Shown in pieces: positions 58,587-59,427 of a stretch of DNA of 64,000 nt. The position numbers and the translations under genes were made by a program. The DNA lies in contig JAILLA010000074.1 in NCBI GenBank assembly GCA_024693325.1, forward strand, positions 2,480 to 66,479, written 5' to 3'. Source of the stretch: Solobacterium sp. (GTDB lineage Bacteria; Bacillota_I; Bacilli_A; Erysipelotrichales; Erysipelotrichaceae). Below the pieces are notes generated by a model that worked only from the letters and a program-made list of their open reading frames with translations, was not told the DNA's origin and searched no databases. Numbering within the stretch: position 1 is the stretch's first letter; each line of letters opens with the position of its first letter.

Positions 58587-58710
58587 GATGATTTATACTC
58601 CGGTTCTGCTGCTTTTATCATAGCAGGCATAGCCGGATCTTCCTTTCAGAATTCAGTTCAATCCTGAAGGGTTTTGAAACATCATTAAATTTTGTGATCT
58701 GCACTAAACC

Positions 58711-58738
58711 TTGAAAAGGTGATCTGCTGTGCTATGAT
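58711..58738 (+). promoter_or_regulatory. sigma-A-like promoter facing the toxin 3-prime end (copy 1)
   Basis: TTGAAA, 16 nt, then TGcTATGAT (extended -10). Confidence 0.5.
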
Positions 58739-58744
58739 AAATCT

Positions 58745-58832
58745 ATAAAAGGGTCACCGAATGACGGTTGTCCTCGAAAATTAACGAAGTCGATCGCTAA
58801 CGTTTGTCAGACACTGAGCGGTCGACTTTCGC
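58745..58832 (+). ncRNA. predicted cis-antisense RNA (candidate antitoxin), copy 1; ends are approximate
   Basis: Lies downstream of the promoter. An 11-bp hairpin (58787-58797 / 58818-58828) pairs fully only in the plus-strand transcript. It overlaps the toxin stop codon and C-terminal codons. Confidence 0.35.
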
Positions 58833-58919
58833 ATTAATATAAGATGCGATCTGCAGGCCAAGGGCTATGGACGCAATGGTAATTCCGATGATCGAAAGTA
58901 CCGTATTAATATCGAACAT
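58797..58919 (-). CDS. 40-aa hydrophobic peptide, candidate type I toxin (MFDINTVLSIIGITIASIALGLQIASYINAKVDRSVSDKR)
   Basis: ATG (58919) to TAG (58797), translated by hand. GAGGAGGTG lies 9 nt upstream. The peptide has a single TM-like helix and a charged tail. It is below the ORF-track length cutoff. Confidence 0.6.
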   Translation of the reverse strand: MFDINTVLSIIGITIASIALGLQIASYINAKVDRSVSDKR

Positions 58920-59049
58920 AGAGACACACCTCCTCAGCGTTGTTTATCGTTTTGGAGGGGAGTCGCTTCCTCCCCTTGGATGCAGGAGGACAACCGCCAC
59001 CGTTATGATGACCCAATCATATATACGTAATTTTATTTCATTTTCCGTA

Positions 59050-59077
59050 TTGAAAAGATGATCCGCAATGCTATATT
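59050..59077 (+). promoter_or_regulatory. sigma-A-like promoter facing the toxin 3-prime end (copy 2)
   Basis: TTGAAA, 16 nt, then TGcTATATT. It sits at the equivalent position in the second cassette. Confidence 0.5.
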
Positions 59078-59083
59078 GAACTT

Positions 59084-59172
59084 GTATTCAAGGTCACTGT
59101 ATGACGGTTGTCCTCGAAAATTAACGAAGTCGATCGCTAACGTTTGTTGGACAGAGAGCGGTCGGCTTTCGT
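59084..59172 (+). ncRNA. predicted cis-antisense RNA (candidate antitoxin), copy 2; ends are approximate
   Basis: The equivalent hairpin is 59127-59137 / 59158-59168, with two G-U pairs. Confidence 0.35.
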
Positions 59173-59259
59173 ATTGATATAAGATGCGATCTGCAGGCCT
59201 GAGCCTATTGATGCAATGGTAATTCCGATGATCGAAAGTACCGTATCAATATCAAACAT
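59137..59259 (-). CDS. 40-aa hydrophobic peptide, second copy (MFDIDTVLSIIGITIASIGSGLQIASYINTKADRSLSNKR)
   Basis: Same length and frame as copy 1. There are 15 nt differences (5 silent codon changes, 7 aa changes) with no stop or frameshift. SD is GGGGAGGTG. Confidence 0.6.
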   Translation of the reverse strand: MFDIDTVLSIIGITIASIGSGLQIASYINTKADRSLSNKR

Positions 59260-59384
59260 AGAGACACACCTCCCCAGCGTTGTTTAGCGTTTTGAAGGGA
59301 GCCGCTTCCTCCCCTTGGATGCAGAAGGACGACTGCTACCGTTATAGTGACCTGATGATACATATCTTTTGTTGGAACGCCGGA

Positions 59385-59417
59385 TGAAAAATTCCCGGAA
59401 ACTGTGATTTCCGGGAA
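59385..59417 (-). terminator. intrinsic terminator after the methyltransferase gene
   Basis: The minus strand reads TTCCCGGAAATCACAGTTTCCGGGAATTTTTC, a 10-bp stem. Confidence 0.75.
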
Positions 59418-59427
59418 CATTCGGGGT

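Follow-up and report, generated by a model that had tools for sequence, protein, structure and literature searches.

A candidate lineage-restricted family of type I toxin-antitoxin-like cassettes with a 5'-3' mRNA clamp in Solobacterium and related Erysipelotrichaceae

Introduction

Several described toxin-antitoxin (TA) systems of type I resemble the element analyzed here, a 340-bp cassette that is present twice, head to tail, at 58690-59376 of a 64,000-nucleotide (nt) stretch of contig JAILLA010000074.1 (hereafter the window), which comes from a metagenome-assembled genome of Solobacterium sp. The closest of these systems are txpA/RatA and bsrG/SR4 of Bacillus subtilis, in which a small single-helix toxin is encoded, the Shine-Dalgarno (SD) sequence lies in a double-stranded region, and a convergent antisense RNA of ~100 nt runs over the 3' end of the open reading frame (ORF) and the 3' untranslated region (UTR) (layout PMC8594479). 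The cassettes match this layout of the Gram-positive families with a 3'-side antisense RNA overlapping the ORF (PMC8594479), as their own predicted antisense RNA would cover the last 13 codons and the 3' UTR. By analogy with txpA/RatA and bsrG/SR4, the duplex formed at the 3' end would be cleaved by RNase III, which is how the cassette antitoxin is expected to work (PMC6563280, PMC3834814); the SD region of bsrG is, in addition, remodeled when SR4 binds to the 3' end (PMC3834814). However, searches of Pfam, NCBIfam, and Rfam revealed no peptide or RNA sequence similarity to TxpA/RatA or BsrG/SR4, and, unlike the Bacillus systems, none of the cassettes in the data seen lies on a prophage-like element. 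Moreover, the 5' end of the cassette mRNA is predicted to pair with the same 3' segment that is covered by the antisense RNA, an arrangement of which we know no report for these Bacillus systems.

The par locus of the Enterococcus faecalis plasmid pAD1 (Fst/RNA II; Fst/Ldr) shares with the cassettes convergent promoters, a terminator hairpin used both ways, an intramolecular helix (5'-UH) that sequesters and stabilizes the 5' end of the toxin mRNA, an SD-sequestering stem-loop, and a peptide composed of a hydrophobic helix and a charged tail (PMC7472228). However, a PXXXG motif in the transmembrane (TM) helix is essential for Fst toxicity (PMC7472228), whereas the hydrophobic segment contains a proline in 0/28 aligned cassette peptides. 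The direct repeats DRa and DRb of par make RNA II complementary to the translation initiation region, while the cassettes are flanked by inverted repeats instead, and the cassette antisense RNA and ORF overlap, in contrast to the arrangement in Fst/RNA II (PMC8594479). Membership in the Fst/par family was rejected, as both PXXXG and DRa/DRb-type complementarity are missing; no Fst/par toxin or RNA II model matched at E<=1 (Pfam, NCBIfam) or E<=10 (Rfam).

A long-distance 5'-3' lock of the full-length mRNA and successive alternative hairpins with SD and anti-SD elements are features of hok/Sok (plasmid R1) and aapA1/IsoA1 (Helicobacter pylori) that recur in the cassettes (PMC8594479, PMC6733600, PMC9841398). 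These Gram-negative systems, however, employ an antitoxin that overlaps the 5' or translation-initiation region (with a leader ORF in hok) and acts on the 3'-processed mRNA, whereas the antisense promoter of the cassettes lies 3' of the ORF and its RNA would target the 3' clamp arm; the likeness is a functional analogy only, with no sequence homology. The cassette architecture may be described as the Gram-positive 3'-overlap layout combined with a hok/AapA-style 5'-3' clamp, the 3' arm of which is the predicted antitoxin target. The CD2517.1/RCd8-type modules of Clostridioides difficile are also comparable, since they comprise previously unannotated, convergent, and overlapping genes for peptides with a hydrophobic N-terminus and a basic C-terminus, without homology to earlier families, and came to light only when antisense RNAs and small ORFs were considered together (PMC6563280). 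Nevertheless, those peptides measure 50-53 aa and end in a lysine-rich tail, in contrast to the 36-46 aa and KNDRxSxK tail of the cassette peptides, which marks a different family; the C. difficile modules are linked to prophages and CRISPR arrays, and no 5'-3' clamp is described for them in the review PMC6563280.

We propose that each 340-bp unit is a self-contained, bona fide type I TA-like module of a new family and assign this reading a probability of about 0.7. We infer it from the architecture, which agrees with the class in a hydrophobic TM peptide of <60 aa encoded by a selected ORF, in the signals of an overlapping cis-antisense gene (read from sequence only), and in a predicted mRNA whose SD is sequestered and whose ends interact. 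A first-pass annotation, made from the DNA letters alone, had put forward the type I interpretation, which is supported by the comparative analysis, as far as sequence can tell; the comparison shows that the ORF is coding, that the antisense promoter and terminator are conserved, that the 5' and 3' ends pair, and that the cassettes occur in several copies and irrespective of genomic context. The 5'-3' mRNA clamp, the role of the stop-codon hairpin as the predicted antisense terminator, and the taxonomic restriction of the family go beyond that annotation.

The duplicated unit and its peptide gene

The head-to-tail duplication of ~340 bp that had been noticed at the outset is borne out by direct repeats pairing 58752-58959 with 59092-59299 (208 nt, 90%) and 58951-59025 with 59290-59364 (75 nt, 83%) at a spacing of 339-340 nt, and an alignment of the two 346-nt units gives 90% identity. 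An nhmmer cassette profile, built with both window copies included, found only two matches in the 64-kb window, and these are the two cassettes (E=2e-77 and 2e-73). Since the profile matches exactly these two places and the architecture recurs in ~30 independent cassettes, the arrangement is more than chance.

Each unit carries an intact 40-codon ORF on the minus strand behind GGAGGTG, as had been claimed and as the ORF list confirms. The cassette 1 ORF (58797..58919, -) encodes MFDINTVLSIIGITIASIALGLQIASYINAKVDRSVSDKR, with an N-terminal TM helix at residues 7-25 and a basic tail, and the cassette 2 ORF (59137..59259, -) encodes MFDIDTVLSIIGITIASIGSGLQIASYINTKADRSLSNKR, with dN/dS of 0.34 relative to copy 1. 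The two copies differ at 15/123 nt and 7 aa, residues 6-18 being identical, exactly as first counted. The hydrophobic helix and charged tail ascribed to the peptide are likewise recovered: for cassette 1, the Kyte-Doolittle 19-residue maximum is 2.18 at residues 7-25 and the tail bears a net charge of +2, and AlphaFold2 with the family alignment predicts one helix spanning residues 4-39 (pLDDT 87). The ORFs offered by the annotation track at 58867-59061 (+) and 59205-59420 (-) are indeed present, and each covers cassette sequence either in antisense orientation or out of frame, in agreement with the earlier description.

Across the family, median pairwise dN/dS of the ORF is 0.27, with dS often >1, and the frame is intact in 27/29 cassettes examined; routine disruption of the frame in homologous cassettes, which the first-pass annotation had named as evidence that would count against it, is confined to the 2/29 broken copies. 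The members measure 36-46 aa and share the hydrophobic helix, after which comes GLGLQIASYIN..KNDRxSxK. Compared with the window peptide, their identity drops to ~40%, with still weaker relatives in an exhaustive profile search, and down to ~40% peptide identity the SD-ATG arrangement stays fixed and the ORF stays open at 36-46 codons. Judged by these substitution patterns, the peptide ORF is a real coding gene under purifying selection. An orthologue of window copy 2 from another sample (L009, 307-444) contains a 1-nt deletion that frameshifts the tail (..INRKPAALCLTNVSDRLR), which represents either an assembly error or a naturally inactivated toxin.

The predicted antisense RNA and the stop-codon hairpin

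Near-consensus plus-strand promoters had been reported in both copies, and the promoter scan recovers each of them at 10/12 plus the TG extension: TTGAAA-16-TGcTATGAT at 58711..58738 (+) in cassette 1 and TTGAAA-16-TGcTATATT at 59050..59077 (+) in cassette 2. These are the two best of 5 promoter-scan hits in 1 kb, where 1.9 +/- 1.6 are expected. In 31/32 cassettes, the element GGGTCACC is preceded at a near-fixed distance by the extended -10 box TGnTAnnAT, with the end of the -10 hexamer mostly 10-11 nt upstream of GGGTCACC and 6 nt upstream in one cassette. The sole cassette without the box (1/32) has also lost the GLGLQ motif and part of the tail. This degenerate unit, the second copy of locus L019 (~5257 in locus coordinates), reads GLDLH in place of GLGLQ, has a shorter tail, and retains intact clamp arms; it looks like a module in which the toxin and the antitoxin promoter are decaying together.

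A hairpin that carries the stop codon within its loop (GUCGACCGC ... GCGAUCGAC) occupies 58789..58826 in cassette 1, where it is the predicted terminator of the antisense RNA and would be leaky for the mRNA; its counterpart in cassette 2 (59129..59166) folds at -8.4 kcal/mol on the sense and -18.9 kcal/mol on the antisense strand. Three of its eight pairs change on both sides in a compensatory manner, and its non-Watson-Crick cells, read on the mRNA strand, comprise 17 A.C against 1 G.U, so that the wobble pairs fall on the antisense strand. In 22/23 cassettes, the antisense version of the hairpin has the greater stability (mean -16.8 vs -11.4 kcal/mol for the sense version), and the tail that follows it contains 5.2/9 U on the antisense strand compared with 3.6/9 on the sense strand. 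Because of this greater stability and more U-rich tail, the hairpin would terminate a plus-strand RNA of ~90 nt while remaining leaky for the mRNA. Its sequence is at the same time coding, as the codons of the K-(N/V/A)-D-R tail form the 5' arm and the A-run of the antisense terminator (58789-58826 / 59129-59166; columns 217-255 of family alignment A5). The variable N/V/A residue co-varies with the non-coding 3' arm, so that some of the protein sequence appears to be determined by RNA structure.

Given where the promoter and the terminator hairpin lie, antisense RNA 1 is predicted to extend over ~90 nt (58745..58836, +) and to fold at -28.7 kcal/mol with the terminator hairpin at its 3' end; antisense RNA 2 (59085..59176, +), also ~90 nt, is predicted by homology, 77/91 nt being identical. 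On the mRNA, antisense RNA 1 would match by complementarity the final 13 codons with the stop codon, as well as the 3' UTR and the 3' arms of both clamp helices. The convergent antisense RNA proposed earlier to run into the 3' end of the ORF gains support from the -10 box in 31/32 cassettes and from the antisense bias of the terminator hairpin. The cognate antisense-mRNA duplex is calculated at -177.5 kcal/mol, and cross pairs between the window copies at -132 to -149 kcal/mol. Against the 5' region of the mRNA, the antisense RNA reaches -39.6 kcal/mol compared with a shuffle mean of -40.7 +/- 5.3, i.e., no above-chance complementarity, and it therefore cannot act directly on the translation initiation region; a par-like mechanism, in which the antisense RNA acts on the mRNA 5' region, was rejected on these values. 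The promoter scan also found no promoter-like site antisense to the 5' UTR.

The predicted toxin mRNA and its 5'-3' clamp

The toxin mRNA predicted for cassette 1 is ~268 nt long and extends from GGGUCAUC to GGUGACCCUUUU (58747..59014, -), the nhmmer family match covering the same putative ends (59014-58747). Its minimum free energy is -104.2 kcal/mol, with the 5' and 3' ends paired, and a 267-nt version gives z=-5.2 relative to shuffles. Candidate sense -10 boxes, TATATA at 59025-59020 or TATGAT at 59021-59016, lie just upstream. The predicted cassette 2 mRNA of ~266 nt (59088..59353, -; nhmmer match 59353-59088) folds at -84.2 kcal/mol, again with its ends paired.

The pairing of the ends involves two helices of 8 and 13 bp, in which the 5' sequence GGGUCAYC...GGCGGUUGUCCUC finds its complement, GAGGACARCCGUC...GGUGACCC, a short way downstream of the stop-codon hairpin. 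In cassette 1, the 5' arm of helix 1, GGGUCAUC (59007..59014, -), pairs with 58751-58758, with 98.9% of alignment cells paired and 5/8 pairs changing on both sides, and the 5' arm of helix 2, GGCGGUUGUCCUC (58986..58998, -; inverted repeat I2), pairs with 58763-58775, with 94.9% of cells paired. The corresponding 3' arms, GAGGACAACCGUC ... GGUGACCC (58751..58775, -), fall inside the predicted antisense-RNA target. In cassette 2, the 5' arms AGGUCACU ... AGCAGUCGUCCUU (59325..59353, -) pair with 3' arms at 59091..59115 (-), and helix 2 is weakened by three mismatches; the clamp duplex accordingly amounts to only -23.0 kcal/mol in copy 2 vs -40.6 kcal/mol in copy 1.

RNAalifold predicts both clamp helices unguided. 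Over 23 sequences, 94.8% of the clamp cells are paired, a share that falls to 26-61% if one partner is shifted by 1-3 columns against the other; ten clamp pairs change on both sides, and 0/500 shuffles reach the observed values. Helix 1 of the two window copies already differs by two compensatory pairs (GGGUCAUC/GGUGACCC vs AGGUCACU/AGUGACCU), and compensation continues in distant members, with GGAUCACC/GGUGAUCC, GGACUGUCA/UGAUGGUCC, GUUCUC/GAGAAU (L174), and GGUGGUUCCUC/GAGGAACUACC (L159). The non-Watson-Crick cells of the clamp comprise 45 G.U against 9 A.C, and one G.U of helix 2 is invariant in 23/23 sequences. Because G.U outnumbers A.C and one G.U is invariant, the helices are predicted to form in RNA, on the mRNA strand, and not to be terminal repeats at the DNA level. 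The clamp further implies that part of the mRNA reads through the stop-codon hairpin, which fits the weakness of this hairpin on the sense strand.

The mRNA 5' end varies in some members. In the more distant groups, the mRNA starts with a co-varying hairpin, GCAGGG..CCCUGC (GACGUC..GACGUC in one lineage), that the window copies lack. In L154 (3001-3604), both tandem copies carry an insertion of ~23 nt (CACTCTGTGTGCCCTACGGGTAT, with a CCC/GGG hairpin of its own) midway along the 5' arm of clamp helix 2, which the sister contig L150 does not have. The member P0038 (L155, 2784-3270) retains the ORF along with the stop-codon hairpin, the antisense -10 box, and a 3' arm that has diverged; its canonical 5' clamp arm is absent, and a terminator-like hairpin precedes its unrelated 5' UTR.

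The 5' UTR and predicted sequestration of the Shine-Dalgarno sequence

The GGAGGTG SD was confirmed at 58933-58927, with its GGAGG core 9 nt from the ATG. It belongs to a 5'-UTR region of cassette 1 (58927..58989, -) that contains four segments, namely a (CCUCCU, 58989-58984), b (GGGGAGG, 58975-58969), c (CUCCCCUCC, 58962-58954), and d (the SD itself, GGAGGUG, 58933-58927). The region folds consistently into an a:b hairpin followed by c:d pairing over the SD, and the GGAGG core of cassette 1 is essentially fully paired (predicted P unpaired 0.00). Distant members rebuild the a:b hairpin with unrelated sequence (CUCACUU/AAGUGAG, CCUCUCUA/UAGAGAGG), the segments co-vary among them, and in one such member all four are extended to 12 nt.

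SD accessibility was modeled by constrained partition-function folding of 26 family mRNAs in free, clamp-enforced, and 3'-blocked states. The median P(unpaired) of the GGAGG core is 0.06 in the free, 0.08 in the clamp-enforced, and 0.02 in the 3'-blocked state, and single sequences go either way. Sequestration of the SD by CCUCC-type elements, another suggestion of the first-pass annotation, is supported, since the SD is predicted to be paired in all modeled states. A further helix, 'P3', was noticed by eye and in folds from which the SD was left out; it reads AGCG/CGCU in the window group and GGCG/CGCC in another group, and its formation is incompatible with that of the helix sequestering the SD. 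The difference between its cognate (-3.5 kcal/mol) and non-cognate (-2.2 kcal/mol) linker-spacer pairings is modest, and no claim is made for it.

Whether the clamp might also couple the two ends of the mRNA into an allosteric switch can be considered only tentatively. It is possible, though doubtful, that the antisense RNA at the 3' end controls translation through the clamp besides triggering decay. The mRNA 5' arm and the 5' end of the antisense RNA, which are near-copies, might conceivably compete for one 3' segment. The clamp, whose 5' arm overlaps a, could perhaps withdraw this segment, whereupon b would pair with c and the SD would be freed, a step we regard as uncertain at best; equally speculatively, antisense binding could release a, restore the a:b and c:d pairings, and close the SD ~200 nt away. 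Because the SD stays paired in all three folded states, a four-segment switch coupled to the clamp is not backed by thermodynamics, the medians of 0.08 (clamp-enforced) and 0.02 (3'-blocked) favoring it only marginally; it is retained as a possibility because the segments co-vary in distant members. If true, it would represent a type I system in which translation is controlled via a 5'-3' clamp in addition to decay.

Distribution of the cassette family

The search of related genomes that had been recommended for this locus was carried out and returned ~30 related cassettes from rumen and gut assemblies of Erysipelotrichaceae and Solobacterium. Protein searches yielded ~40 clusters at 90% identity, and the exhaustive profile search 39 representatives among 1.84 billion proteins; no family protein found in these searches carries a name or a Pfam domain. 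No source lists an accession number for the window peptides, and 'hypothetical protein' is the sole name under which the family appears in any source. The species-level genome matches (10/10) are all Erysipelotrichaceae or Solobacterium assemblies from rumen and gut, and a full-text literature search found no paper connecting type I systems with Erysipelotrichaceae. Within the collections searched, the family is lineage-restricted to Erysipelotrichaceae/Solobacterium and previously undescribed.

Tandem arrays of 2-4 copies are common, several loci can occur in a single genome assembly, and copies inside one assembly are diverged, not near-identical. Close relatives keep the synteny of the window (methyltransferase, 2-3 cassettes, SIS), and distant members lie in unrelated intergenic gaps, for example between TetR-family genes, behind a glycoside hydrolase gene or ABC-transporter genes, or adjacent to genes for ETF, a serine recombinase, or IS605. 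The divergent member P0034, for instance, is found directly after a serine recombinase (L159, 171-2058) and directly before IS605 TnpA/TnpB (L160, 42-1889), contexts that hint at carriage on, or insertion beside, mobile DNA.

That the peptide belongs to no named family, as first stated, is upheld by Pfam, NCBIfam, PHROG, and Rfam. A Pfam scan of 28 members gave only weak sub-threshold matches (DUF3956, MWFE, and others); DUF3956 (PF13104) matched 4/28 members over the hydrophobic stretch only, with a best E=0.0029 and with copy 1 at 16.4 bits, below the 22.3-bit cut-off. Searches of NCBIfam, PHROGs, and PDB sequences returned nothing meaningful, and Rfam, at both gathering and permissive (E<=10) thresholds, returned weak sub-threshold matches and no known antitoxin RNA, the nearest name, 'antisense_SR1', scoring 15.1 bits against a 45-bit threshold. 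A metagenome scan with the 17-nt 5'-arm pattern CGGYGGCGGTTGTCCTC gave at least 120 stretches and 10 viral matches; because the 3' arm is absent among the matches listed, these are attributed to chance.

Proposed mechanism and alternative explanations

According to the proposed mechanism, the minus strand would be transcribed into the ~268-nt mRNA for a 40-residue, single-helix membrane peptide. This mRNA would be stable and poorly translatable, as its 5' end would be paired to its 3' end (8 + 13 bp) and its SD buried by the upstream CCUCC element. The strong extended -10 promoter on the plus strand would drive a ~90-nt antisense RNA into the 3' end of the ORF, stopping at the stop-codon hairpin. 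This RNA would pair perfectly with the 3' end of the mRNA, including the 3' clamp arms, and, given such complementarity, a long duplex for RNase III is expected; its pairing would pull the clamp open, exposing both mRNA ends, and may also tighten the sequestration of the SD. Until opened, the clamp would protect these ends in a manner comparable to the 5'-UH, which stabilizes par RNA I (PMC7472228). The transcription of both RNAs, the toxicity of the peptide, its neutralization, and the nuclease steps are presumed from this arrangement. The occurrence of tandem arrays, unrelated neighborhoods, several loci per assembly, and one decaying copy would also be consistent with selfish-module behavior.

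Several observations weigh against a type I module. The sense promoters in the window are weak, ambiguous, and below the promoter-scan pass, and no canonical terminator follows the 3' clamp arm. SD accessibility shifts only marginally on 3' blocking (median P unpaired from 0.06 to 0.02). No homology to any validated toxin was found in Pfam, NCBIfam, PHROG, or Rfam. Plasmids and phages are the home of many type I systems; plasmid and phage collections (blastn, tblastn) and IMG/VR contained no relatives of the cassettes.

This absence from the plasmid and phage collections searched would suit a different kind of gene, namely a genuine non-toxic small membrane protein, e.g., a stress- or transport-associated micropeptide, whose expression is tuned by a cis-antisense RNA. 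Coding selection, the antisense promoter, and the structured mRNA are equally compatible with such a micropeptide, and the GLGLQIASYIN..KNDR stretch is unusually well conserved for a membrane-perturbing toxin. However, a housekeeping role is difficult to reconcile with 2-4 diverged tandem copies, several loci per assembly, and unrelated gaps, some of them by recombinase or IS605 genes. The heavy silencing predicted for the gene, i.e., a paired SD, a clamp, and a near-consensus antisense promoter opposed to sense promoters below the scan, also argues against a micropeptide, as does the copy that lost the peptide motif and the antisense promoter together. Multiple copies, silencing, and joint decay are hallmarks of type I TA loci and not of housekeeping micropeptides; on balance, we consider the micropeptide unlikely, albeit deserving of serious attention. 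Far less probable is that the unit is a non-coding repeat with an incidental ORF, either a miniature mobile element with the arms as terminal inverted repeats or a structured small RNA pair. The inverted-repeat arms at the ends of a ~270-bp unit, and the presence of units at different loci, sometimes beside transposases, point toward a mobile element, but dN/dS of 0.27, a frame open at 36-46 codons, and the SD-ATG spacing fixed to ~40% identity contradict a non-coding repeat. Furthermore, arm mismatches that are mostly G.U on one strand (45 vs 9), one of them invariant in 23/23, would be meaningless for DNA repeats bound by a transposase, and the copies within one assembly are diverged instead of near-identical. 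The selected ORF, the one-strand G.U wobbles, and the diverged copies led us to reject a terminal-repeat element of the miniature inverted-repeat transposable element (MITE) type.

The cassettes share their orientation with the downstream SIS gene, and their four mutually complementary 5'-UTR segments resemble an attenuator, which raises the question of whether they are cis-regulatory leaders of that gene, i.e., a riboswitch or an attenuator with a leader peptide. We regard this as scarcely credible. Elsewhere, the genes that come after the cassette are unrelated or point the other way (a TetR-family regulator, an esterase, ETF subunits), or the cassette lies just downstream of unrelated genes such as an ABC-transporter pair; the SIS gene has its own extended -10 promoter (58625-58614), and no Rfam family was matched; the leader reading was rejected as contradicted by the varied genomic contexts.

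As type I modules, the cassettes would constitute a well-supported candidate family in an under-studied clade of rumen and gut Firmicutes and a clean system for studying 3'-end antisense effects on mRNA stability and on distant ribosome-binding sites. They also illustrate that RNA covariation together with wobble-strand asymmetry can expose both transcripts of such modules from sequence alone. Since 40-codon genes of this kind are missed by standard annotation, they are worth masking or annotating in Erysipelotrichaceae assemblies.

Neighboring genes and copy-number variation

One flanking gene encodes a SIS-domain protein (PF01380, E=1.6e-22), and the other a 290-aa protein that barely exceeds the LCM methyltransferase cut-off (22.5 vs 22.3 bits). 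The methyltransferase-like gene, upstream of the cassettes, ends in an intrinsic terminator (59391..59418, -), detected by the terminator scan as a 12-bp stem followed by TTTTT, which lies outside the cassette and shields cassette 2 from read-through. In close relatives (L001, 3678-3887; also L006 and L008), the first full copy is preceded upstream by a third, 5'-truncated cassette that is joined to the terminator region of the methyltransferase gene; the copy number at the window locus therefore varies among strains (2 in the window, up to 3 elsewhere, and 4 in L013). The 39-aa member P0010 shares a 90% cluster with a 634-aa Vibrio cholerae 5'-nucleotidase, a grouping that is almost certainly a clustering artefact of the protein collection. 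The extended -10 promoter of the SIS gene (58625-58614, -), TGCTATGATAAA, repeats, in inverted orientation, the antisense promoter box at 58730-58741, which suggests that TGnTATGAT is a local promoter consensus and that the SIS gene, having such a box of its own, is independent of read-through from the cassettes.

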